Below, piece by piece: positions 1-12,343 of a stretch of 64,000 nt of DNA. Numbering within the stretch: the first letter of the stretch is position 1; every line of letters starts with the position of its first letter. The notes beneath the pieces were generated by a model, which saw nothing but the letters and a program-made list of their open reading frames with translations, was not told where the DNA came from and made no database searches. A program made the translations under genes and the position numbers. Origin of the DNA: Thermostichus sp. DRC_bins_24 (lineage in GTDB: Bacteria > Cyanobacteriota > Cyanobacteriia > Thermostichales > Thermostichaceae). The stretch is from positions 1 to 64,000 of the forward strand of contig JAUQVK010000035.1 of NCBI GenBank assembly GCA_039794845.1, in the 5' to 3' direction.

Positions 1-2378
1 CTAGAACCAGGCACCGATTTCAGCACTTGCGCCCAAAGTTCCAGAACTTTTGGAGTAATTTTTGATGGATTGTTGCAACAGCCAAAAGTGATATACCCGT
101 TCCTTAACACAGGTGGATCAACAACTTCTGGAGCTGCTTCACTGGGCCTGTAACAGAGAAAACTATGTGGCATCCTGACTAATTTTTCGGTATGTAACCC
201 ATCAGTCATGTCTTCGGGATCAGCATAATTGTCTGTAATTCGATAGTCAACCACTGACATTCCCGTTGTATCAGGATACCCAATGTATGTGACTTGTACG
301 GGTGCTGCTCTTAAAGCCAATAGGTGCACTCTAGAACCTCCTGTATGTCCACCCAGATCTACCAGGATGTCTATTTGATCCTCACGAATCATCTCCGCAG
401 CTTTCTGATCAGGAATCTTTGCTATAGTACGCCAGCCCGTGGCAAGTTTCTCGATCTTCCTAGTAACATCATCTGGGCCTTCAACATTTGAATAGCAATA
501 AATAAGGAACTTTTCTTGGTCATGATTTTCGTAAATTCCCTCCATAAAGAAGTTGACAGAATGCTTTCGAAAGTCCCCTGATAAGTAGCCGATGCGGATT
601 GGCCGGTCAGGATTATTCTCGTTAGGGTATGGTAACCAGTATTGTCGATGTCTATGTTGGAAATTGAGTCCCCATCTTTGATGTTCTAGAAAAGTTTCTT
701 GTGGATCGAAGTCTTCCGAATAGTGCATTGACATAAGAATATTCGATGCTGCACTTGGAAGGCCCGGTGCAAGTTCACCTGCTTTGCGATAAGAGGCTAA
801 TGCCTCTTGCAAACGACACTGCTCCAGATAAGCTCCCCCCAAATTGAGGTGAGCCATTACAAAGTTTTCCTTCAGTCTTATGGCAGTTTGGTAACTGTCA
901 ATCGCCTCCTGCAAACGTGACTGCTTAACTAGCGCTAGCCCTCGGTAAAAATATGCATCTGGTAGCTTGGGATCAAGATTGATTGCCTCTTCTAGATGAG
1001 ATAACGAATCATCGATCTTATTTTGTCCATAGAGCATAGCGCCAATGTTGCAATAGGCCTCAGCCAAATTGGCATCCACCTCAATTGCTCTCTGGAAGTA
1101 TAGCTGCGCCTCATCTTCTTTCTGTAACATTTGATAAGCTCGGCCAAGGTTGTTGTAAGCCCTAGCGAAAGCTGGTTCTAGATCTATCACTTGCTTGAGT
1201 TTCTCTATAGCTGTTTCATACTGACCCAAATCTAGATGGTAACAAGCTAGGCTATGTAGATATTCTGGATTAGTAACATCTAAGTCACAAGCAATCTTCA
1301 GATGGAACCCCGCTCGATGTATTGACTTCTGAGTACGATACAGCAACCCAAGATTATGATGGGCCTCTGCATATTTCGGATCCAGTGCTATGGCCATTTG
1401 AAAGTAGTCAAGCGCACGATTGGATCCCTTGTATCCAGATAGCTGAGTATCTGTAGCGATGTTACTTTCTTCTGCCCCAATATTTGTCTTTACTTCTTCT
1501 CTAAGGCCCCGGCTGATTGCAGCACCGATGTTGTTGTAGGCACGAGGGTATGACTGACGATGCTGCAGAGCGAGATGATAACAACGGAGTTCCTTTTCTA
1601 GATTGTCTTGTTCTCCATAGACTCGTCCGAGATTTAGGTATGCCTCCGCATATTGAGGATTCAAATCAATTGCCTTTTCTAGTAAGACCTGTGCTTCTTC
1701 TAACCTGCCCATCTCTGCCATAAGCAGGCCAACTTGGTGAAAGACTATAGGCTGATCTGGAAATTCACTGATCAGAATCTTAGATTGGTTGATCGCTGTT
1801 TCTAGGCGCCCAGACTTTTGATACGCAGTAAGTAGATCGATGCGCATCTCTAATTTATCTGGAGAAAGCTTAACTGCACGCTCAAGGGCAGCAATAGCGC
1901 TGTTCCAGCTACCTTCATGAATGTATACTTTGCCAAGTTGATAATGAGCTTCTGAATAAGCTGGCTCTAAATCTATAACAACCAATAAGCTAGCCTGCGC
2001 TTCTTCAAAATTTCCAGTCTGCAAGCTGGCAAGAGCCAAGTTAAAGTGTGCCGAAACGTTGTCTGGAGCTAGCTTGGTTGCTATCTTATAATGCTCAATC
2101 GCTTTACTCCAATTTTGGCTGGCTTGATACGCGGCCCCTAAGTTTACATGAAATGAGGGTTGGTCAGGTCGATGAGCAATTGCTTTGGAAATAAAATCGA
2201 CTGCTTGTTGATGTTTTCCTTGTTGATAGGCAAGTATGCCCCGATAATGGAGGGTCTCAACGTGATCAGGGTCAATAGCCAGAACTCTTTGGTAGTAGTC
2301 TTCAGCTTCCTTCCACTTCCCTTCTTGGTGATGCTTTATGCCTTCTGAAAGTAGAAAGTTTATAGAAGAATCTGACAT
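1..2378 (-). CDS. TPR-repeat GT41 glycosyltransferase (SPINDLY/OGT-like O-GlcNAc/O-fucosyltransferase), runs off the left edge of the window
   Basis: Manual translation from ATG 2378: MSDSSINFLLSEGIKHHQEGKWKEAEDYYQRVLAIDPDH..., many TPRs (e.g. AFARAYNNLGRAY), then GT41 motifs RIGYLSGDFRKHSV, IDILVDLGGHTGG, APVQVTYIGYPDTTG and FGCCNNPSKIT. The start codon and the last codons (LWAQVLKSVPGS) share one frame. Absent from the ORF track because there is no stop in the window. Confidence 0.9.
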   Translation of the reverse strand, partial: MSDSSINFLLSEGIKHHQEGKWKEAEDYYQRVLAIDPDHVETLHYRGILAYQQGKHQQAVDFISKAIAHRPDQPSFHVNLGAAYQASQNWSKAIEHYKIATKLAPDNVSAHFNLALASLQTGNFEEAQASLLVVIDLEPAYSEAHYQLGKVYIHEGSWNSAIAALERAVKLSPDKLEMRIDLLTAYQKSGRLETAINQSKILISEFPDQPIVFHQVGLLMAEMGRLEEAQVLLEKAIDLNPQYAEAYLNLGRVYGEQDNLEKELRCYHLALQHRQSYPRAYNNIGAAISRGLREEVKTNIGAEESNIATDTQLSGYKGSNRALDYFQMAIALDPKYAEAHHNLGLLYRTQKSIHRAGFHLKIACDLDVTNPEYLHSLACYHLDLGQYETAIEKLKQVIDLEPAFARAYNNLGRAYQMLQKEDEAQLYFQRAIEVDANLAEAYCNIGAMLYGQNKIDDSLSHLEEAINLDPKLPDAYFYRGLALVKQSRLQEAIDSYQTAIRLKENFVMAHLNLGGAYLEQCRLQEALASYRKAGELAPGLPSAASNILMSMHYSEDFDPQETFLEHQRWGLNFQHRHRQYWLPYPNENNPDRPIRIGYLSGDFRKHSVNFFMEGIYENHDQEKFLIYCYSNVEGPDDVTRKIEKLATGWRTIAKIPDQKAAEMIREDQIDILVDLGGHTGGSRVHLLALRAAPVQVTYIGYPDTTGMSVVDYRITDNYADPEDMTDGLHTEKLVRMPHSFLCYRPSEAAPEVVDPPVLRNGYITFGCCNNPSKITPKVLELWAQVLKSVPGS

Positions 2379-2442
2379 TTTTTATTGGTCTTCCTGGTAC
2401 TCATCCAGTATAACTGAACGGATCTCAAAGTCTTTCGCTCAC

Positions 2443-2476
2443 AAAAAAGAGCAGGGATAATACATTACCCCTGCTC
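2443..2476 (-). terminator. Rho-independent terminator downstream of the lipoprotein gene
   Basis: GAGCAGGG...CCCTGCTC stem with an A6 run on the + strand, i.e. a U-tract on the - strand. Confidence 0.7.
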
Positions 2477-2530
2477 AAACCTAGACCAAAGCCCTCAAGA
2501 TGAGGATATAGAACTGTGTTAGCGACTCAC

Positions 2531-4237
2531 CTAGCGAGGAATGGTGAAGGTCACATCCAGGCGAGGGGCGCTAGAGGTGGTAAGTGGCTCAGGAGCACCT
2601 CTGTCGAACTCAGCACGGCAAACACCGTCAGAGCCCTGACTGACCTCAAAGCCAGCGGTCACAGTGGTAGTGGTCACACCAATAGGAGCCGTCACCGTGA
2701 TGATCGCTGTCTCAGTGACAACACCAATGCTGGTAGCAGTCTGAGTGCCAGGGGCAGTGGCAGTTACACTGACAGTGACATCAGCTTCAGCACTGGCCGT
2801 TACAGTGACAACAGGGCCAAGGGTAAAAGTACCAGTCTCAGTGACCAGTACAGTCGCCGTACCAGCCGCTGAGCCCGTAGCTACTGCAGTGAAACCGTCA
2901 ACCGCGACCGTACCGCTGAAGGTACCCGAGAAGGTAAAGCTTACGGAGCCGGTCTCAGTAATGCTAACCACAGCAGGCACGGTGCCACTGATGGTGCCGG
3001 AACCAGTTAGCGTAACTGCCTGAGTCTGAGTTTCAACAACGATGGCCGTCTGGGTAACAATGCCGGTAGCAGTTGCAGAGGCAGTACCAGTTGCCGTAGC
3101 TCCACCTGTTGCGGTAGCAGCCCAAACTGGGAAGGCTTGGTTGTTGAACACTTCACGAGCACACTGCAAGCGCACCTGATAGAAGCGGCTGCCAGAAACA
3201 GAACGCTGCACACCAGGGGCAACATCGGCAGTACGCGGCCCGGCAGAGACATCCCCACCCAACACGTTGCCGTTGATGCTCAAGGCAATGAAGCTGGGGG
3301 TTGAAGCCGGAGCAAAGAAATCGGTAGAGACAATGTTGTTGGGCGCGCCCAAGGTCACTTCTTGGAACACCACGTTGTTGGCCGGAACGTTGCTCGGCGT
3401 GGGATCCAGGAAGAAGAAACCAAGACCAATGTCACCAAACCCAGGGATGAAAGCCGAGTCATTCGAGGGCAACTGCACCAAGGTAAGCTGGGCAGTTTGC
3501 ACCACCGCGTTGGATGGAATCGAGCTCGGGATGGGGAAGGAAAGAATGGCACGGTAGTCGGTGTAAACGCCCACCGGAACATTTTCCGCCGGGCTGGCGC
3601 GGCGAATACCGTAGCCAACAGGGATCGCCCTTGGACTAGAGAAGATCTGACCGTTCGGGGTCACCGCAGCCAGTTGGGTAGCCAAGAAGCTGATCGGCCC
3701 ACCAGGAACAGCAACGTTACCGGTGGTGAAGGTGGCAACAAAGTTCTCCGCCAAGCCCAAACCAGAAGCAAACAGATTCGGCACCGTGCTGGAGATGGTA
3801 ACCCGGTACACCGCATCGTTGGTCAGCGGAGTGGCGAAGGTGATGGTGGCCTGAGTTCTGTCATCGTTGAAGGTGACGGTGCGGCTGGGCACAACACCCT
3901 GCTGGGGAGCAATGGAGGTGATGCTCAGAGCGGTGTTGAAAGGCCCTTCGTTAACCGGCTCGCTAAAGCGAATAACAATAGAAGTGGTGGTAGCAACGTT
4001 GGTCGAGCCATCCGTCGGAGAGAAGAAAATAACGCTGCCCGTTGGAGCCGGGGGAGGTGGCGGCGGAGCTGGGGGAGCTGGCGGCGGAGCCGGGGGCGGA
4101 GGTGGAGGCAGGGGCACCACGCTGGAAGAGCTGTCTTCGCTACAGCCGGCCAAAATAATCGGTAGCATCACCACCGCAGATGCCAGCGACAGAGACCCAA
4201 GTGACTTCATCAGCCACTTATATGTTTTTCCGTTCAT
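2531..4237 (-). CDS. Surface lipoprotein: poly-Pro linker, Ig-like (Big_5/SbsA-type) domain, DNRLRE/CBM96-like domain with a long Thr-rich insert
   Basis: Lipobox ILAG-C, PPPPPPPAPPP linker, Big_5-like SPTDGSTNVATTTSIVIRFSEPV...YRVTI...FTTG, DNRLRE-like RAILSFPIPSSIPSNAVVQTAQLTL and C-terminal APRLDVTF. Confidence 0.75.
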   Translation of the reverse strand: MNGKTYKWLMKSLGSLSLASAVVMLPIILAGCSEDSSSSVVPLPPPPPPAPPPAPPAPPPPPPAPTGSVIFFSPTDGSTNVATTTSIVIRFSEPVNEGPFNTALSITSIAPQQGVVPSRTVTFNDDRTQATITFATPLTNDAVYRVTISSTVPNLFASGLGLAENFVATFTTGNVAVPGGPISFLATQLAAVTPNGQIFSSPRAIPVGYGIRRASPAENVPVGVYTDYRAILSFPIPSSIPSNAVVQTAQLTLVQLPSNDSAFIPGFGDIGLGFFFLDPTPSNVPANNVVFQEVTLGAPNNIVSTDFFAPASTPSFIALSINGNVLGGDVSAGPRTADVAPGVQRSVSGSRFYQVRLQCAREVFNNQAFPVWAATATGGATATGTASATATGIVTQTAIVVETQTQAVTLTGSGTISGTVPAVVSITETGSVSFTFSGTFSGTVAVDGFTAVATGSAAGTATVLVTETGTFTLGPVVTVTASAEADVTVSVTATAPGTQTATSIGVVTETAIITVTAPIGVTTTTVTAGFEVSQGSDGVCRAEFDRGAPEPLTTSSAPRLDVTFTIPR

Positions 4238-4530
4238 TCTTTCTCCTCTTTACCAAAAAGTAGGGTTCGGCTGAACACTTCCCTTAACTTACCCGATCAA
4301 CCTCCCTAAGGCAACTGAAAGCCATAGAAGATAGCCACTCGGGCGGGAGACGCATACACGCCTGTGTCAGCGGTTGCTCTGGTTACTCCGTAAATCATAC
4401 AGGCAGATCCGGCCGGTTTGACAAGTGCCGCCGTTTTTTTCTGGATCGTTGGGGGATCCAACCTCAAGTCCGAAAGCTTGCCCGATGATCCTGATGATGT
4501 TGAACGGCGAGAAGGTCGCCATGGCTAAAC

Positions 4531-4790
4531 TCAACCTGTAGCGTCTTGTAGAAATTGCCCCGCTTGGGCTAGGGAAATCTCCAGCAGTTCGGCAATTTGG
4601 ACGGGATCCTGACCCTTGCGATGCAGGCGCTGCACAGGCCGCAGCTCAGCTTCGATGCCCTACTGGATACCTTCTTGTCGGCCAACGGCCACGAGGTCTT
4701 GGTGGAAGTGGGTTTTTTTGAATGGTTCGGGAATGATCAACATGGCTTGGATCTCCTCCCGGCTGAATTTGCCGAGCAAAATGCCGCCGA
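4531..4790 (-). pseudogene. C-terminal remnant of an Rpn-family (recombination-promoting nuclease/putative transposase, DUF2887-like) gene
   Basis: Minus-strand frame reads ILLGKFSREEIQAML...KKTHFHQDLVAVGRQEGIQ*GIEAELRPVQRLHRKGQDPVQIAELLEISLAQ...TG*. This is a typical Rpn tail (EGRQEG repeat plus HTH-like 'QIAELLEIS') with an in-frame TAG at 4660-4662 and no nuclease domain. Confidence 0.7.
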
Positions 4791-4849
4791 TGCCCAAGGG
4801 CTGAGAGAGCCGCAGCAAGTCGTCAGCATGAACCGAGGAAGCCACTCAA

Positions 4850-5104
4850 GTGCCAGAGAGGCTGATGGCGCTCTCGGACAGACAAGACCTCGCTCTAGAA
4901 GAGATGCGCCGGTATCGGGCAGAAGCTGACCAAAGGTTTCATGTCTTGCTTGAGAAAGTGCGCTACCTCATTCGTAGGCAAATCGCAGGAGCCACCACTA
5001 GAAACTTAGAAACTCGGCCGGGAACTTTTGTTGGTAGGGGAAAATTGTCTGCCCTCTGGCCGTTTCAATCTTCATCTATTTCCCATTCCAGCAGGTGCGC
5101 ATAG
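4850..5104 (+). pseudogene. Fragment of a small cyanobacterial coiled-coil hypothetical protein
   Basis: EEMRRYRAEADQRFHVLLEKVRYLIRR resembles the C-termini of small cyanobacterial coiled-coil proteins. It has no convincing start and a read-through tail. Confidence 0.3.
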
Positions 5105-5313
5105 GGAGCTACCAGACTGGGAGAGTAAAAGGCGATGGCTCGCAGAGCATGCCAGTCTTCCAAACAGCCAAAGACGGTCGGGTAATCGTTCCGTTCCAAC
5201 CGCTCTGCAATGGCCGCCACATCAGATTCGGTAAACCGGCGGGGATCCGCCCCCATAACCGGGGCTTCGGCTAACACCCCCGCGTCGTTTCGAGAATGGG
5301 ATCGAGCAGACAT
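5065..5313 (-). CDS. DUF2555 family protein
   Basis: Conserved cyanobacterial motif VAAIAERLERNDYPTVFGCLEDWHALRAIAF...PYAHLL. Start codon uncertain. Confidence 0.8.
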   Translation of the reverse strand: MSARSHSRNDAGVLAEAPVMGADPRRFTESDVAAIAERLERNDYPTVFGCLEDWHALRAIAFYSPSLVAPYAHLLEWEIDED

Positions 5314-5425
5314 AGGCAGCCTGAACACGCTACAAGCCGATCTTAACTTCTGAACCCGAAAGGCTCGCGCTTAAGAAGTAGATTTGTACAGGTTCTACAT
5401 ACAGCTGGCTCGAAACGACCCTTAC

Positions 5426-5776
5426 CTAGCGCAAGATTTCAAAATCCAGAACAGGCTCCGTTTGGGTGACCCGGTAATATCCCGCCTGGGTACGAACCGA
5501 GGCTTGATAAGGACTGGGTAAATCCAGAGACCGCAGGGGTGGGGCACTGGTGCGCTGATTCAGCAGGGTGGTGAAGTAAGCGGTGGTCTGTCGAGCTTGG
5601 GAACGCACCACCTCTTCGGGGTAAACGACCGGGTCAACATCCCTGCCCGTATCCAGCAGGATCGCATCCAGGGCATTCCCCACAGGATGAGAAGGATAGG
5701 TAATCTGAGCAAAAGCAGATCTCAGTGGGATCCCAGCCGACAGACAGCCCAGGGCAATTGCCAACATAAGACGCAT
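5426..5776 (-). CDS. Small secreted hypothetical protein (cyanobacterial)
   Basis: Signal peptide ending AFA-Q, GAGG RBS upstream of the ATG, C-terminal PLRSLDLPSPY motif. Confidence 0.7.
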   Translation of the reverse strand: MRLMLAIALGCLSAGIPLRSAFAQITYPSHPVGNALDAILLDTGRDVDPVVYPEEVVRSQARQTTAYFTTLLNQRTSAPPLRSLDLPSPYQASVRTQAGYYRVTQTEPVLDFEILR

Positions 5777-6024
5777 GTGTTGTGATTCCTCTTGCGCGAC
5801 AGCTCGTTCCTCAACACCAGAAAAAGGGGAGATTTCGATAGCGCTAATCAGCCCTTATCTCCGAAAAACATATTTTGACCCTTGACCGACAGCTGAAGCC
5901 GATTCTACTCGAAACAACCAAATCGGCAAGGGTTTCAGGTGGATACGACTGATATGACAACCGATATGACAAAAGATCCCACCGCCGACTAGGATCTGGA
6001 TGCTCCTGTTGGGATCCCTCGCCT

Positions 6025-7461
6025 GTGACTGTTTGTGTTCGCATCGCCCCTAGCCCGACCGGCAATTTGCACATCGGCACCGCTCGGACGGCGGTGTTCA
6101 ACTGGCTGTATGCCCATCGTCACGGTGGCAAATTTGTTTTGCGCATCGAAGATACCGACCGTGACCGCTCCTTGCCTCGGTATACCCGCAACATCCTGGC
6201 GGGGCTGGCTTGGTTAGGGCTGGACTGGGATGAAGGGCCGATTTATCAATCCCGCCGTATCGAACGGTATCAAGCGGTGGTGCAACAGCTTTTGGATCAA
6301 GGGTTGGCCTACCGTTGCTACGTTAGTGAGGCAGAACTGGAGGAGATGCGCACTGCTCAAAAAGCCGCCGGTAAGGCTCCTCGCTATGACAATCGCCACC
6401 GCTACCTCACGGAAGAGCAACGACAAGCCTACGAAGCCGAGGGGCGGCAACCGGTGATCCGCTTCAAAATCGAGGAGCCTCTGGAGGTCTCTTGGGTGGA
6501 TCTAATCCGGGGGCAGATCACCTGGAATACCCAAGATTTGGGAGGGGATATGGTGATCGCCCGAGCGGATGGTTACCCACTTTACAACCTGGCGGTGGTG
6601 GTGGATGACATCGATATGAAAATTACCCATGTGATTCGCGGTGAAGATCACATCGGCAATACTCCCAAGCAAATTTTGCTCTATCGTGCCCTTGGTCACC
6701 AACCACCCCAGTTTGCCCACTCTCCTTTAATTTTGAACCCGGAAGGCAAGAAGCTCTCTAAGCGGGATGGAGCCACCTCTGTGGCGGAGTTTCAACAGAT
6801 GGGCTTCTTGCCGGAAGCCCTGAAGAACTATTTGGCCCTGCTCAGTTGGTCGCCCCCCGATGGGGAGGAGATTTTCTCGGTTGAGAAGGCCGCCACCCTC
6901 TTTGATTTCGACCGGGTCACTCGTTCGGCGGCCCGCTTCGACTGGGATAAGCTGAACTGGATTAACAGCCAGTACATCAAACAGCTCTCGGCGGCAGAGT
7001 TGGTGGAGCGGCTCAGCCCCTTTTGGCAAGCAGCAGGGTTGGATCTAACCACGGTGCCGGATCCCACTTGGCTAGAAGACTTGGCCCGCCTAATTGCCGA
7101 TGGCATTGACCGCCTGACGGATGCCCCACCGCTAAGTCGGTTTTTGCTGCAGGATCCCCTCAGCTACACGGTGCCGGCCCTAGAACAACTGCGGCTCCCT
7201 GGGGTGGCTGAGGCCATGGCTGCCATGGCAGAAATCCTAGCCAGTGCCGATCTGCCCGAGATTTCGGTGGACAGCCTGAAACCGCTGGTGGATCAGGTGG
7301 CCAAAGCCCAGGGGATGAAAAAGGGCGTGCTGATGAAAAGTCTGCGGGCGGCCCTAACGGGAGATTTGCAGGGGCCAGACTTGATGGAATCGTTTGTGCT
7401 GCTGCAGCGGCGGGGTTGGGCCTTGGGGCGGCTAGAGATGGTGCAAAAGCTGGTCTCTTAA
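6025..7461 (+). CDS. gltX: Glutamate--tRNA ligase
   Basis: RIAPSPTGNLHIGT (HIGH motif), LRIEDTD, HVIRGEDH, KLSKR (KMSKS motif). Confidence 0.97.
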   Translation: MTVCVRIAPSPTGNLHIGTARTAVFNWLYAHRHGGKFVLRIEDTDRDRSLPRYTRNILAGLAWLGLDWDEGPIYQSRRIERYQAVVQQLLDQGLAYRCYVSEAELEEMRTAQKAAGKAPRYDNRHRYLTEEQRQAYEAEGRQPVIRFKIEEPLEVSWVDLIRGQITWNTQDLGGDMVIARADGYPLYNLAVVVDDIDMKITHVIRGEDHIGNTPKQILLYRALGHQPPQFAHSPLILNPEGKKLSKRDGATSVAEFQQMGFLPEALKNYLALLSWSPPDGEEIFSVEKAATLFDFDRVTRSAARFDWDKLNWINSQYIKQLSAAELVERLSPFWQAAGLDLTTVPDPTWLEDLARLIADGIDRLTDAPPLSRFLLQDPLSYTVPALEQLRLPGVAEAMAAMAEILASADLPEISVDSLKPLVDQVAKAQGMKKGVLMKSLRAALTGDLQGPDLMESFVLLQRRGWALGRLEMVQKLVS

Positions 7462-7627: not shown

Positions 7628-10600
7628 ATGTCTTCTGTTGCGCTGACGGGTTTGGATCCCACCTTGTTGGTTCAGCTCCAGGCTGCTAACGAAATTGTGC
7701 AGGAATTGGTGTTGCTGGCTTCGCCTCTGCCCGGGGAGGGTGGAGAAGTGGAGTCGGCGGTAGCGGGATTAGAGCATTGCCCCCTGAACCTGGCCCAAAC
7801 TCTGGTGCAGCAGGTGGTGAATCGCTTGGGGGCGGCCTCTGCCCGCATTTGGTTTTTCGACCCACAGCAGGGCTGTTTTCGGTCGGTGGCTCATGCTGGT
7901 TTGCTCAGCCCTGCCCAGGAGCAGGTGGAGCGGATTTACCCCGATAGCAGCCCCTTGGGGCGTGTGGCGCAGCAAGGGTTGCCGCTCTTGAGCAACAATC
8001 CGGCTCAAGAACCCTGGATGCCCGCCCCGGAGTGGGTGGAGGCCCATCATCTGCGCAGCTTTGTTGCTTACCCGATCAGCCGGGGGGAGGAGCGGTTGGG
8101 GGCTTTGGCCTTGTTTAGCCATACCCCTTTGGATGGCAGCTTTCTGGAGGTGGTGAAGTTTCTCTGCTCTTATGCCGCCAGCGCCATCATCAACGCGCAG
8201 CTGCTGGAGCGCAGCCAACGGCAGGCGGCCCGAGAGGCTTTGTTGAACCGCATCACCAGTACGGTGCATCGCTCTTTGCATTGGGATCAGATTGTCGCCA
8301 GAGCTTTGCAGGAGCTGCAGCAGACCCTCTTGGGGCTAAAAGGGCTCAGCCGCTGCTGTTTTTACAGCCTCAACCCCAGCCAACAAACCATTCAAGTGAC
8401 CCACGAGGCCCACAGCGCCGGGTTAACCCCCTCTCTGGGCCGGGTCTACCCCATGCAAGATTTTGGTCCTCTGTGTGAGCCGCTGCGGCAAGGGCAAGTG
8501 GTACAAATTGCTCTGCCTCTGCCGCCAGACCAAGATCCCTTGCCACCGGAAGGACTGGCGGCTTTTCAAGCGTTGCAGGCCCGCTCGGCGGTGTTGATCC
8601 CGGTGCAGTCGGTTGGCTCGGCAGGGGTGGAGTTTTTTGAATCGGGGTCGGGAGATCCCCACTTGGGAGGGTCGGCTCCAGAACCGGAGGGGATGATCGG
8701 CTTGTTGGGGGTATACATGACCACCCCCCACCCCTGGCAACCGGAAGAGATCGAGCTGTTGCGCTCGGTGGCCTACCAACTGGCCATTGCCCTGACGCGC
8801 TCCAGCTTGTTCGATCATGCCCGCCAACAGACGGAACGGCTGGCCCTGTTGCACTCAATCACTGCGGCGATTCGCTCTAGCTTAGAGCCAACCACCCTCT
8901 TCCATGCGATCACGCAGCAGATCGGGGTGGCCTTTCAGGCGGATGTCTGTACCTTGGCCCTTTGGCAGCCGGAACAGGAACTGTTGCATCCTGTCGGCAT
9001 TTATGCCCCGCAGCTTACCCCCACTCAATTGGAAGCACTGTTGCCGGGGATGGCTTTGCTGGGGGGATCCCCAGAACTTCCCTGGGTAGAGCCCGGGATC
9101 CCGCAAGCCCTGCCGGAAACCATCAAGGCCAAGTTGCGCTTGGGGGGCAGTTTGCTGGCTAGGTTAACAGGGCCAGTGGTGCTGCCGGATCCGAAGACGC
9201 TGCTGCACTGCTTGGCGGATCTGGAGCCGCGACGTCAGGGCAGTGGGCTGTTGCTGGTTCCCCTTTTCGCCGCCGGCAATCCCGGTTCTACTCCACAAGG
9301 TGCAGAGCACCGCAGGCAGGAGCTTTTGGGGGGAATCGCCTTGATGCGTCATCCCCAACCGGGATCCCTGGTTCCCCCCCCTTGGCAAGCGGATGATCTG
9401 GAACTGGCAGAAGCGGTGGCGGAGCAGGCGGCTATGGCCATTGGTCAGGCGCGACTGTTGAAACAAACCCAGCACCTCTTGGTACAAACCCGGCAACAGG
9501 CGGAACAGGCTTCCCTGCTCAACCGCATGACCGATCGCATTCGTCATTCTTTGGATCTGGATGAGATTTTGCAGTCGGCAGTTGAAGAAGTTGGCCGAGC
9601 CCTGCAAGCCTGCCGGGCCCAATTTGTCTTTTTCGACCCGGCTCAGGAAACCGGTATCTTTCGTTATGCCTACGCACGACCCGGTATTGATAGCTGGCTG
9701 GGTCGTCGCATTCCCATCCGGGACAACCCGATTGCCCCCTACCTGGAGGCACAGGCGGATCCCTTGGAAATTCGCATTTGGTCGGGGCTGGAAAGTTTCG
9801 ACGCAGAAAGTCGCAGACGGTTTCAGGAGGCGGGGGTGAGGACGGTGATCTCCGCCAGTTTGCAACTGGGATCCGGCACCTTTGGGGTGTTGAGCGTGCA
9901 TCGCTGTCATGCCGACTATCTTGCTGTGCAAGGTGCGGAACACCCTCTTGCTGTGGAAGGTGCGGAGTCCCTTGGCCAAGCTGGGGATCGCCCTGCCTGT
10001 TTAGAGGATTGGTCGCCTGCGGATCAAACCCTGTTGCGCTTGGTGGCTGAACAGCTGATCTTGGCCATCACCCATTCCCGCCTCTACGAAAAAACTCAGC
10101 AGCAGGCCCGCCGCGAGACCCTGTTGAATGAGTTGACTGCTCAGATTCGCACCTCTTTGGAGCCGCGCCAGGTGTTGTACTCCATCGTCCGGTCTTTGGA
10201 GGCAGCTTTGCAGTTGGATGGGGGTGCACAGGGGTCGCCGGACGCCAGCAGCCGGGGATCCCGTGACCGCTGTGAGATTATCCTCTACCGCTCGCAGCCC
10301 AGTGTGCGGCAGGACTGGATCGAGCATTGCCACTCCTTTTTGCGCTGGATGGATACCCGACCCCTGGCGGATGGAACCCCCTTTGTAGAGGGGCTGGCCC
10401 AGATGCGGCAGCCGGTGGTTTGGTCGGAGGGGATCTTTGTGCGTGGCTCAATGCAGGAGGATCCCCTCAAGGAAGTGCCGATTCCCTTTCATTCCTTCCG
10501 GGATCCGCGGCTGGTACTGCATACTCCCCAGCTGGGGCAAGCGGGGGATGGTGCTCCGCCCCTTGCCGAGCAAGAACGCTTTTTGGAGGCCCGTTTGGAG

Positions 10601-12343
10601 TTTTGCCTCATGCACCCCGATACCTACGAGCTGTTGCGGCGGGGGGAACCGTTTCTCCTCAAGGATGCCCGGCGGGATCCCCTCTACCCGGATTTGGGCG
10701 AAGAGGTAACGGAGCGGCTGCGCTACCTTTTCCAGGTGTTGGCCATTCGCAGCATGGCCCTGATCCCCATTCGTCAGGAGGGGGAGTTGATCGGCACAAT
10801 TGCCCTGATCGCCGATCCGCACCCGCGGGAGTTTCGCCCGGAGGAGCTGTCCTTGGCCATGGCGGTGGCGGAACAGGCGGGGATCGCCCTCAAACAGGCG
10901 CAGCTCTACGAACAAACCCGCATCTCTGCCCAACGGGAAAGCCTACTGCGTCAGATTGCCCAGCGCCTCAGTGGCACCTACGATCCTCAGCAGGTGGTGC
11001 AAATCGCCCTCGAGGGTATGGCGGATGCTCTGCAAATTAGCCAGTGTGACTTTATCGCCCTGCAGGATCCCTGTGCTGCGGGGTTGCCCGGTCGGAGGAC
11101 ACAGGATCAAGCCGCTGCGGATCCTTTGCCCCATTGGCCAACTCCCTCCGAACCCCTGAAGGTTCTACAAGAATATCGCCGTCAACCGGGGATCCCTTCT
11201 CATTTGGGGCAGACGGTGCCTCCTGATTTGAATTGGCTGCTCCTGCTCAACTGCTATGGCAGCCGCGATACCCTCTTGATTCAGGATGTGAACCAGTTCC
11301 CGTTGCCCGCCCAAACCCGACGAAATCTGTTGCAGTCGGGGATCCGCTCTTTGTTGTGTGTGCCCATGACCACCGATGCCGACCAGATCGCGGGGGTACT
11401 CTGTGCCTTTACTCCACCGGAAGCCGCGGATGCCGGCGGTACCCTCACCCGTTCCGAAGGAACGGGCTTTTCCGAAAGCGAGACGGATTTGGTGAAGGCC
11501 TTGGCGGATATCGCAGCGGTGGCTTTGCAACGGGCCTTGTTTTACGAACGGGTGCGGCGGCAGGAAGCAACGGCAGCGGCCTTGCGGGGCCTCACGGAGG
11601 GGCGAGAGGCAGAAAGTCGGCGTTTGGCAGCGGATTTGCACGATCAAACCCTGGCGGATCTGGGGGCCTTGTCTCGCCAAATTCAGGAGCTTTCCTGCGA
11701 TCCCACCATCGGTCAGTCGGGGCAGGATCGGTTGCAGGCCATGAGTGCCCAACTGCGGGAGACCATCGCTGAGCTGCGCGGAATTGTAGAAGACTTGCAG
11801 CCGACGGCAATGCGGGCCTTTAACCTCGGCCCCGCCCTGCGCAGCCTTCTGGAACGTGCCGCCCAACGCTCCGCCCATCCCCTTGTAACCCGCTTTGATG
11901 ATCGGGCCAATGGGTTGCTGTCCCGTCTTAGCCCCGCTTGCCAGAGCAGCATTTTCCGCATCGTGCAAGAAGCCCTGAACAACATCGTCAAACATGCCGG
12001 GGCGCAGCGGATCGACATCACCATTCAGCCGAAGGCACTGGGCACCCGTCCGTCCGGGGGGTACGACTCAGGGGACGGTTCCTTGCCCGACCCTCGAGAT
12101 CCCTACACCCACCTGGAGTTGAAGATCATCGACAATGGCCGGGGCATGCCGCAAGGTGACCCAGAGCTTGGGTCGCAAGGGGAGCCCAACCCAGAAACCC
12201 CCGGGCCGCGCAGTCATGGGCATGGCCTTCTAAATATGCGCTACCGGGCCGAGTTGATTGGGGCGACAATCGCCTGGCGTACTCGCCGCTTTGGCAGTGG
12301 CACTGTGGTGGAGTTGCTGATCCCTTTGCCCCCACCCCCCTGA
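7628..12343 (+). CDS. Cytoplasmic multi-GAF sensor histidine kinase, NarX/HisKA_3 type
   Basis: About six GAF repeats with LxxVAxQxAIAL linker helices, H-box RRLAADLHDQ, FRIVQEALNNIVKHA, DNGRG, GHGLLNMRYRA. No transmembrane segments. Confidence 0.9.
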   Translation: MSSVALTGLDPTLLVQLQAANEIVQELVLLASPLPGEGGEVESAVAGLEHCPLNLAQTLVQQVVNRLGAASARIWFFDPQQGCFRSVAHAGLLSPAQEQVERIYPDSSPLGRVAQQGLPLLSNNPAQEPWMPAPEWVEAHHLRSFVAYPISRGEERLGALALFSHTPLDGSFLEVVKFLCSYAASAIINAQLLERSQRQAAREALLNRITSTVHRSLHWDQIVARALQELQQTLLGLKGLSRCCFYSLNPSQQTIQVTHEAHSAGLTPSLGRVYPMQDFGPLCEPLRQGQVVQIALPLPPDQDPLPPEGLAAFQALQARSAVLIPVQSVGSAGVEFFESGSGDPHLGGSAPEPEGMIGLLGVYMTTPHPWQPEEIELLRSVAYQLAIALTRSSLFDHARQQTERLALLHSITAAIRSSLEPTTLFHAITQQIGVAFQADVCTLALWQPEQELLHPVGIYAPQLTPTQLEALLPGMALLGGSPELPWVEPGIPQALPETIKAKLRLGGSLLARLTGPVVLPDPKTLLHCLADLEPRRQGSGLLLVPLFAAGNPGSTPQGAEHRRQELLGGIALMRHPQPGSLVPPPWQADDLELAEAVAEQAAMAIGQARLLKQTQHLLVQTRQQAEQASLLNRMTDRIRHSLDLDEILQSAVEEVGRALQACRAQFVFFDPAQETGIFRYAYARPGIDSWLGRRIPIRDNPIAPYLEAQADPLEIRIWSGLESFDAESRRRFQEAGVRTVISASLQLGSGTFGVLSVHRCHADYLAVQGAEHPLAVEGAESLGQAGDRPACLEDWSPADQTLLRLVAEQLILAITHSRLYEKTQQQARRETLLNELTAQIRTSLEPRQVLYSIVRSLEAALQLDGGAQGSPDASSRGSRDRCEIILYRSQPSVRQDWIEHCHSFLRWMDTRPLADGTPFVEGLAQMRQPVVWSEGIFVRGSMQEDPLKEVPIPFHSFRDPRLVLHTPQLGQAGDGAPPLAEQERFLEARLEFCLMHPDTYELLRRGEPFLLKDARRDPLYPDLGEEVTERLRYLFQVLAIRSMALIPIRQEGELIGTIALIADPHPREFRPEELSLAMAVAEQAGIALKQAQLYEQTRISAQRESLLRQIAQRLSGTYDPQQVVQIALEGMADALQISQCDFIALQDPCAAGLPGRRTQDQAAADPLPHWPTPSEPLKVLQEYRRQPGIPSHLGQTVPPDLNWLLLLNCYGSRDTLLIQDVNQFPLPAQTRRNLLQSGIRSLLCVPMTTDADQIAGVLCAFTPPEAADAGGTLTRSEGTGFSESETDLVKALADIAAVALQRALFYERVRRQEATAAALRGLTEGREAESRRLAADLHDQTLADLGALSRQIQELSCDPTIGQSGQDRLQAMSAQLRETIAELRGIVEDLQPTAMRAFNLGPALRSLLERAAQRSAHPLVTRFDDRANGLLSRLSPACQSSIFRIVQEALNNIVKHAGAQRIDITIQPKALGTRPSGGYDSGDGSLPDPRDPYTHLELKIIDNGRGMPQGDPELGSQGEPNPETPGPRSHGHGLLNMRYRAELIGATIAWRTRRFGSGTVVELLIPLPPPP

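Follow-up and report, generated by a model that had tools for sequence, protein, structure and literature searches.

The contig JAUQVK010000035.1 (C35) of the cyanobacterium Thermostichus sp. DRC_bins_24 (assembly GCA_039794845.1) starts with two genes on the minus strand that fill its positions 1-4237 (the window, the whole stretch of DNA that was analysed, comprises the first 64,000 nucleotides of the contig): a gene for a predicted lipoprotein of 568 amino acids and, directly downstream, a gene for a glycosyltransferase of family GT41 with tetratricopeptide repeats (TPRs) that resembles the plant enzyme SPINDLY (SPY). Both belong to a cassette with a putative role in protein O-glycosylation, which is the subject of this study. 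An earlier reading of the DNA from its letters (the sequence-only reading) had described the two genes as co-oriented and about 150 bp apart, and this layout is confirmed by the two open reading frames (ORFs; Table 1), with the lipoprotein gene upstream and an intergenic gap of 152 bp (2379-2530). As the window starts at base 1 of the contig and the GT41 ORF is open at this end, the truncation of the GT41 gene stems from the assembly and not from biology: about 190 residues at the C-terminal end of the catalytic domain (the C-lobe) are missing from the window copy.

The window GT41 has 11 TPR_11 stretches over residues 1-560 (Pfam) and matches PF13844 with 122.4 bits (cut-off 25); the full-length orthologue of genome G007 reaches 210.9 bits. 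The best solved match of this orthologue is Arabidopsis SPINDLY (PDB 7y4i, 8dtf), with 464 bits overall, and the catalytic domains align in one piece (379 bits, residues 505-969 vs 389-855, a stretch of 465 residues), whereas human OGT scores 372 bits and truncated OGT constructs (such as 3pe3) align in three separate stretches. Judged from these alignments, the GT41 of the cassette is closer to SPY than to OGT and has no intervening domain between the catalytic lobes. The window copy and all six orthologues contain the motifs GDFRKHSV and CNNPSKIT. With SPINDLY as the best solved match, the assignment as a SPY-type TPR-GT41 with a DFRKHSV motif, made in the sequence-only reading, stands. The equivalog model for HMW1C/NGT (NF049992) is matched with 56 bits, far below its cut-off of 1000.

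According to the available text of PMC9715652, the essential residues of SPY are K665 and H495, those of importance include S496, Y744 and T748, and Y744 excludes N-acetylglucosamine (GlcNAc); bacterial GT41s of unknown donor are described there to have a Tyr at the Y744 position too. We mapped the SPY positions via a HMMER alignment of SPINDLY with the G007 orthologue: H495, S496, N661, K665, H728, Y744, T747 and T748 are conserved in 6/6 full-length orthologues, and the window copy has the equivalents of H495, S496, N661 and K665, with the positions of H728, Y744, T747 and T748 being beyond the contig end. By these residues, the cassette GT41 looks active. The Tyr at the Y744 position argues against UDP-GlcNAc as donor and is no proof of GDP-fucose, because bacterial GT41s of unknown donor share it. 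A GDP-mannose 4,6-dehydratase (gmd) is encoded, over cut-off, in all 12 genomes of the genus, which is compatible with a GDP-6-deoxyhexose donor but not discriminating. The cassette GT41s fall into two clades, between which the identity drops to 41-43%. On contig C37 the source genome encodes another TPR-GT41, which is complete; a motif scan of little weight found no pilin beside it.

We searched 60 relatives with each protein. Full-length orthologues of the lipoprotein were found in the same genus alone (G003, G004, G005, G007, G008 and G011), and a cut copy is present on a tiny contig of G010. All six assessable genus genomes, in which the contig continues past the full-length orthologue, encode a TPR-GT41 of 942-989 amino acids directly downstream of the lipoprotein and in the same orientation. 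When metagenome contigs were scanned with the lipoprotein alignment, 51 loci were found, with 30 lipoprotein genes that have at least 400 bp past their stop codon: 28 of these are followed by a co-oriented GT41-like sequence, mostly at a distance of 130-170 bp and in one case of about 1.4 kb. The co-occurrence of the two genes in other genomes, which the sequence-only reading had suggested as a check, is thus borne out, within one genus. The order lipoprotein-terminator-GT41 is constant while the accessory genes move: a short FkbM methyltransferase gene is found upstream of the lipoprotein gene in G005 and L088, and a small methyltransferase gene comes and goes. At one metagenomic locus (L094) a tandem second cassette lies behind a complete one, and the duplication comprises the lipoprotein and the GT41 gene. 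In G008, two near-identical tandem lipoprotein genes (L061:6815-8602 and 8861-10648), each with its own terminator, precede a single GT41 gene.

The sequence-only reading had proposed a system of two genes; the pair itself persists, and its extent was drawn too narrowly. The cassette has the order lipoprotein, SPINDLY-type GT41, two FkbM methyltransferases, a weakly matching GT-B glycosyltransferase and sometimes a small class-I methyltransferase, and the added enzymes strengthen the view that it builds a glycan. Among the orthologous cassettes, the short FkbM methyltransferase has 279-294 amino acids and the long one 496-514, with PF05050 and TIGR01444 over cut-off; the long FkbM also matches the V. 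cholerae RfbT family weakly. The GT-B-like protein (369-384 amino acids) has weak GT4/GT1 matches below cut-off, and the class-I methyltransferase (171-187 amino acids) is present in G005, G007 and G011. Sequence searches of the PDB with the GT-B-like and the long FkbM proteins returned nothing below an E-value of 0.01. No N-terminal hydrophobic segment and no membrane segments were found in the cassette enzymes, which are predicted to be cytoplasmic; because the hydrophobic segment is absent, their chemistry would be cytoplasmic too. Two paralogous small secreted proteins flank the block. An ORF upstream of it in the relatives ('up156') was rejected as an antisense artefact of the ferredoxin gene.

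In the source genome, the island is split by an assembly gap of roughly 1.7 kb. Its far end is found at the end of contig C68 (C68:12503-14559), with the flank genes, the long FkbM gene and the part of the GT-B-like gene that encodes residues 1-190; C68 stops within the GT-B-like gene and C35 begins within the GT41 gene. The missing GT41 C-terminus is found on no contig of the source genome: contig C54 was considered as a continuation and rejected, as the GT41 fragment found there is another one, high in GC and not overlapping. The GT41 gene has a GC content of 0.44, compared with a genome mean of 0.569 (standard deviation 0.035; 1-kb windows), and its GC content at third codon positions (GC3) of 0.38 is at the 0.3rd percentile of 2157 genome ORFs. 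Many further low-GC stretches of the source genome also lie at contig ends.

The presumed acceptor region of the lipoprotein is a hypervariable Ser/Thr-rich insert, which we delimited in 45 homologues by the invariant motifs NNQA and FE[VI]SQG and which lies between the invariant residues Cys359 and Cys540. It has 142-190 amino acids with 25-42% Ser+Thr, 0-9% charged residues and 28-44% Ala+Gly+Val; the window copy (residues 371-528) has 28% Thr and 35% Ser+Thr. The inserts are about 22% identical to the window copy, vs 80% for the central domain. As the Ser+Thr content, the low charge and the length are kept at this low identity, composition and length appear to be constrained while the sequence is free, which fits a glycan-carrying or an exposed variable region. 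The lipoprotein ranks 6th of 2547 genome ORFs in Thr content per 100 amino acids, the five above it having (TP)n linkers, and it is the sole Ser/Thr-rich protein of the block, with 12-16% Ser+Thr in the flanking proteins. In 24/24 homologous genes the GC3 of the insert is below that of the gene core. A co-transfer of the insert with the low-GC island was considered and rejected: the insert is below the core in all 24 genes whatever the GC3 of the GT41 gene (0.38 to 0.79), and the core GC3 correlates with the GT41 GC3 as well as the insert GC3 does.

The two genes are separated by an intrinsic terminator with the tail TTTTTTGT, as had been noted from the sequence before, and this terminator is real: an equivalent hairpin with a T-run follows the lipoprotein stop codon in 11/11 intergenic regions examined, with a dG of -16 to -22 kcal/mol and about eight distinct stem sequences. 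The weight of this terminator rests on its conservation, because terminator-like sites are no commoner in positions 1-6200 than in shuffled sequences (6 found vs 5.8 expected). Given its presence in all 11 regions, the separate, and presumably stronger, transcription of the lipoprotein gene is a conserved design. A -10-like hexamer ahead of the GT41 gene may belong to a promoter of its own (Table 1); a consensus promoter scan found no full two-hexamer promoter there.

The N-terminus of the lipoprotein, MNGKTYKWLMKSLGSLSLASAVVMLPIILAGC, closes in a lipobox and is followed by the Ser run SEDSSSS and a 26-residue Pro-rich linker. The lipobox residues L29, G31 and C32 are invariant in 49 homologues, in agreement with the lipobox pattern [LVI][ASTVI][GAS]C, and the 19-residue hydropathy of the signal peptide has its maximum of 2.05 at residue 13. 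Lgt (PF01790, two matches) and LspA (PF01252, one match) are encoded in the genome, all over cut-off, and we predict the 568-amino-acid protein to be a bacterial lipoprotein and a substrate of Lgt and LspA. The sequence-only reading had pointed out both the Ser run after the lipidated Cys and the Thr/Ser-rich segment, and both are there; the Ser run fails as a hint specific for the pair, as the same leader, lipobox and Ser/Thr plus poly-Pro module is found on unrelated lipoproteins in genomes without the cassette (G001, G002, G006 and G009). A tether of this kind (leader, lipobox, Ser/Thr, then poly-Pro or (TP)n) is also reused on lipoproteins with beta-helix-like passengers (L015:1483-3255 in G001; G000 contig C23:5264-7498).

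The linker is followed by a bacterial Ig-like Big_5 domain and a conserved central domain. A natural short form of the lipoprotein (467-490 amino acids; P0071, P0074; loci L093-L112) lacks the Big_5 domain, and its linker joins the central domain directly. The central domain has no Pfam match at E<=10, and a profile search of 1.84 billion representatives returned its own family alone (9 matches). The ESM Atlas relates it to CBM96 (PF24517) with a feature score of 0.90 and 140 shared features, and structure rows with template modelling (TM) scores by query of 0.36-0.41 align residues 176-568 as one unit with CBM96-type jelly rolls; both are leads only. If this lead holds, the Thr-rich part would be, as is weakly suggested, an insertion in a CBM96-type jelly roll. 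CBM96 itself was found in none of 151 cyanobacterial genomes at E<=1e-10. An AlphaFold2 model from the 49-sequence alignment has a mean pLDDT (predicted local distance difference test score) of 52, is confident in the Big_5 domain alone and has pLDDT values below 50 in the central domain.

Table 1. Features of the lipoprotein and GT41 genes (window coordinates unless a locus is given; res, residues of the encoded protein).
Feature	Position	Strand	Basis or remark
Lipoprotein gene, presumed acceptor	2531..4237	-	ORF, 568 aa; sole Pfam match Big_5; homologues confined to one genus
Signal peptide and lipobox ILAGC (res 1-32; ILAGC res 28-32)	4142..4237	-	Sequence; 49-homologue alignment; hydropathy
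Ser run SEDSSSS and Pro-rich linker (res 33-66)	4040..4141	-	Sequence
Big_5 bacterial Ig-like domain (res 68-172)	3722..4036	-	PF13205, E 2.2e-13; model pLDDT above 90
Central domain (res 176-370), conserved and without a known family, with invariant Cys359 at its end	3128..3712	-	Homologues about 80% identical
Hypervariable Ser/Thr-rich insert (res 371-528), presumed acceptor region	2654..3127	-	Comparison of 45 homologues
Conserved C-terminal motif (res 529-568) with invariant Cys540	2534..2653	-	Homologue alignment
Intrinsic terminator: 12-bp stem (2476..2449), 4-nt loop, TTTTTTGT tail	2441..2476	-	GC-rich hairpin between the genes
-10-like hexamer TATACT, 28 nt before the GT41 ATG	2407..2412	-	Read from the sequence; tentative own promoter
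TPR and GT41 (SPINDLY-type) glycosyltransferase gene, cut at the contig end	3..2378	-	792 of about 980 aa; Pfam; orthologues 942-989 aa
Internally deleted GT41 of about 270 aa, in which the first TPRs are fused in frame to the final 110 residues	L094:8282-9076, L101:2475-3269, L102:2087-2881, L117:1123-1917		Each after a short-form lipoprotein gene

GT41 genes next to the gene of their substrate are known from several systems. The available text of PMC12397347 reports ten monosaccharides (160 and 174 Da) that are O-linked to Ser/Thr of the CT pilin MrpC of Microcystis, and that the gene of this pilin adjoins a pilin-like gene, a gene for an 'O-GlcNAc transferase' and an FkbM methyltransferase gene; the authors read the two sugars as processed O-GlcNAc. 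MrpC has also been proposed as a potential target of a SPINDLY-family O-glycosyltransferase (PMC2442094). By arithmetic only, 160 and 174 Da equal a deoxyhexose (146) with one or two methyl groups, which would fit a SPINDLY-type transferase combined with FkbM better; dimethyl- and acetyl-pentose fit as well. Because of this arithmetic a methylated small sugar is favoured for the lipoprotein: by analogy, the added sugar is probably small and methylated. Compared by published gene content, the MrpC cluster resembles the cassette described here in being cyanobacterial and in having an exported structural protein encoded beside a GT41 and an FkbM. It differs in its acceptor, a 12-kDa pilin rather than a predicted lipoprotein of 568 amino acids with an Ig-like and an orphan domain, and the cassette here is larger by a GT-B enzyme, another FkbM and, in some cases, a third methyltransferase.

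The other comparable systems share the enzyme family and differ mainly in the target. Arabidopsis SPINDLY, a protein O-fucosyltransferase, likewise combines TPRs with a catalytic domain that lacks the intervening domain of OGT, and the cassette enzyme keeps the active-site residues of SPY; SPY adds a single fucose to nucleocytoplasmic regulators, whereas the presumed target here is an exported lipoprotein. The cytoplasmic Ogt of S. elongatus is needed for PilA glycosylation and, like OgtA of Nostoc punctiforme, is a cyanobacterial TPR-GT41 of the cytoplasm that is required to glycosylate a protein that ends up outside the cell; in these cases the target is a type IV pilin and UDP-GlcNAc serves in vitro (all according to the available text of PMC9306852), while the enzyme here is closer to SPY with a presumed lipoprotein target. 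HMW1C/NGT of Haemophilus and Actinobacillus are also GT41 enzymes that act in the cytoplasm before export, and HMW1C is encoded beside its adhesin HMW1, but they attach N-linked hexoses at Asn sequons (available parts of PMC3012730 and PMC3983070). Flagellin glycosylation islands of Enterobacteriaceae, as described in the available text of PMC4875605, combine SPINDLY-domain GT41s with FkbM or S-adenosylmethionine (AdoMet) methyltransferases, adjoin the structural gene presumed to be modified and are strain-variable; unlike the cassette here, they have flagellin as target and the flagellar apparatus as export route, many of their GT41s are fused to a methyltransferase, and their role is predicted too. 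The substrate-adjacent GT41 is thus an established theme: new here are the acceptor class, a lipoprotein with an orphan domain, and the enlarged set of enzymes, and no new principle is involved. A literature search, with most subscription journals outside its coverage, found no paper on the lipoprotein family or on a GT41 that acts on a lipoprotein.

From these data we lean, if only slightly, towards a dedicated cytoplasmic O-glycosylation system that acts on the lipoprotein before its export by Sec. What the data show is the anatomy of the genes, their conserved arrangement, the protein families, the conserved active-site residues and enzymes that lack signal peptides; in the scheme that follows we infer the lipoprotein as the acceptor, the modified residues, the sugar, the order of the steps and the surface location. 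The lipoprotein precursor would be made abundantly from its own transcription unit, which ends at the conserved terminator. In the cytoplasm, the SPINDLY-type GT41 would bind the unfolded precursor via its TPR superhelix and move a small sugar from a nucleotide sugar to Ser/Thr hydroxyls, chiefly those of the 142-190 amino acid insert; GlcNAc is unlikely to be this sugar, and a 6-deoxyhexose such as fucose is possible. The GT-B enzyme may extend the glycan, and the FkbM and class-I methyltransferases would O-methylate it. The decorated precursor would then be exported by Sec, lipidated by Lgt, cleaved by LspA and held on its poly-Pro tether. A bolder version of the scheme is possible but rather doubtful: a prokaryotic SPINDLY-type enzyme would put a methylated 6-deoxyhexose on the insert in the cytoplasm, hot-spring cyanobacteria would thereby gain a glyco-lipoprotein coat that is mucin-like and varies between strains, the peptide and the low-GC enzymes would co-diversify under phage or grazer pressure, and the sugars of the Microcystis CT pilin would result from the same chemistry.

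Several observations weigh against a dedicated system. The GT41 in the assembly is incomplete, and an intact enzyme in the source genome is a presumption. The Ser run and the Pro-rich linker are not specific for the cassette, given their presence in genomes without it, and the terminator between the two genes means that they are not an obligate operon. Two metagenomic lipoprotein genes lack a convincing partner: there is no GT41 downstream of the one at L089 (438 bp available), and at L096 there is merely a 38-bit match. At least four lipoprotein genes (the second copy at L094, L101, L102 and L117) precede a GT41 gene with an in-frame internal deletion, which keeps residues 16-168 and 846-956 (G007 numbering) and has lost the catalytic core; at L094, the complete first cassette lies in front of this remnant. 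All database matches to the lipoprotein are named Thermostichus or hot-spring Synechococcus, and since the family does not extend beyond one genus, every instance goes back to a single ancestral arrangement, so that the counts depend on each other. In most genomes the whole block from the ferredoxin gene to the two flank genes is syntenic, so that the adjacency may be inherited rather than selected. The joint absence of the pair from four genus genomes (G001, G002, G006 and G009) is uninformative, because the 215-amino-acid flank gene, the sole flank gene searched, has no match there either. Beside the closest GT41s outside the genus (36-40% identity) no such lipoprotein was found, the five Thr-rich proteins with (TP)n linkers elsewhere in the genome are further candidate acceptors, and there is no covariation between the GT41 clade and the Thr content of the insert (0.14-0.29 in clade A, 0.12-0.23 in clade B).

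In the main rival explanation, the GT41 island has targets other than the lipoprotein, for example pilins, (TP)n-linker proteins or, as in the case of SPY and OGT, regulators of the cytoplasm, and the adjacency to the lipoprotein gene is an inherited block within one genus. The genus-restricted family with its syntenic block, the terminator, the lipoprotein genes that persist beside GT41 remnants, the five proteins that are as Thr-rich or richer and the other neighbours of the closest GT41s outside the genus all speak for it, as does the action of a cyanobacterial GT41 on PilA (available text of PMC9306852). We consider this explanation unlikely, since the order, the orientation and the spacing of lipoprotein and GT41 gene stayed fixed while the accessory genes and one flank were rearranged, and the duplication at L094 carries the two genes together. 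Moreover, general targets could be served by the second complete TPR-GT41 on contig C37, and substrate-adjacent GT41 genes are the rule in the cases studied (PMC12397347 and PMC4875605, as far as their available text goes). The enzyme-substrate pair of the sequence-only reading is therefore supported in part: the co-occurrence and the SPY type are in its favour, while the synteny at genus level and the GT41 remnants leave the role of the lipoprotein as acceptor inferred.

Low GC and variable gene content are usual for surface-polysaccharide loci, and the cassette has both (GC and GC3 as given above; strain-variable gene content); FkbM and GT-B enzymes are moreover typical of O-antigen loci, to which the weak RfbT match of the long FkbM could be added. 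The island could thus be a cassette for the modification of polysaccharide or lipopolysaccharide that methylates O-antigen or exopolysaccharide sugars and has no protein target. We regard this as improbable: the largest enzyme is a TPR-GT41 with the active-site residues of SPY, the studied members of this family cited here glycosylate proteins (PMC9715652 and PMC9306852, available text), the cassette has no gene for a flippase, a polymerase or a lipid-carrier transferase, and its enzymes have no membrane segments that we could find. Equally small is the probability we give to a third view, in which the insert folds into a beta-rich domain, either structural or a variable antigen, and is unglycosylated, or glycosylated in the periplasm by another route, with a coincidental link to the GT41. 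Its residues alternate between polar and hydrophobic with short strands predicted at low confidence, it is framed by two invariant Cys, it is hypervariable like an exposed antigen, and again there are lipoproteins that persist beside GT41 remnants. Against this stands the composition of the insert, kept at 22% identity with 25-42% Ser+Thr and almost no charge, which indicates selection on composition as in glycosylated regions; also, a complete set of glycan-tailoring genes adjoins the lipoprotein gene.

SPINDLY-like GT41s are widespread in bacteria, and to our knowledge a substrate or a donor sugar has been established for hardly any of them. With the cassette, thermophilic cyanobacteria that can be cultivated have an apparently dedicated GT41 next to just one obvious candidate for its acceptor, and hence offer a clean and testable enzyme-substrate candidate. 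If the dedicated O-glycosylation of the lipoprotein is true, cytoplasmic glycosylation before export extends from pilins, adhesins and flagellins to lipoproteins, and the cassette would reveal the product of the recurring pairing of GT41 and FkbM. The hypervariable insert and the strain-variable glycan genes are a probable hot spot of cell-surface diversity in the well-studied populations of hot-spring mats. Should the GT41 act on something other than the lipoprotein, what is left is an ordinary variable glycosylation island.

Outside the genus, distant GT41 homologues in G029, G051, G040 (two loci) and G023 have no Thr-rich lipoprotein as neighbour. Among 76 loci outside the genus, an FkbM is nearby in two (L151, L152) and a small methyltransferase in one (L139). 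In several metagenome-assembled genomes of Proteobacteria and Planctomycetes the closest SPINDLY-type GT41 genes are arranged in tandem arrays of two or three (L124, L131, L164, L168, L188).

The upstream flank of the lipoprotein gene is unique to the source genome: here the neighbour is gltX (6025-7461), which is on other contigs in 5/5 other genomes, and these have the ferredoxin gene upstream in common. Within this source-genome-specific flank, a minus-strand ORF of 116 amino acids with a signal-peptide-like N-terminus (5426-5776) lies between the lipoprotein gene and gltX. Downstream of gltX, on the plus strand, an ORF of 1571 amino acids (7628-12343) resembles a multi-domain sensor histidine kinase and is a putative member of this class.

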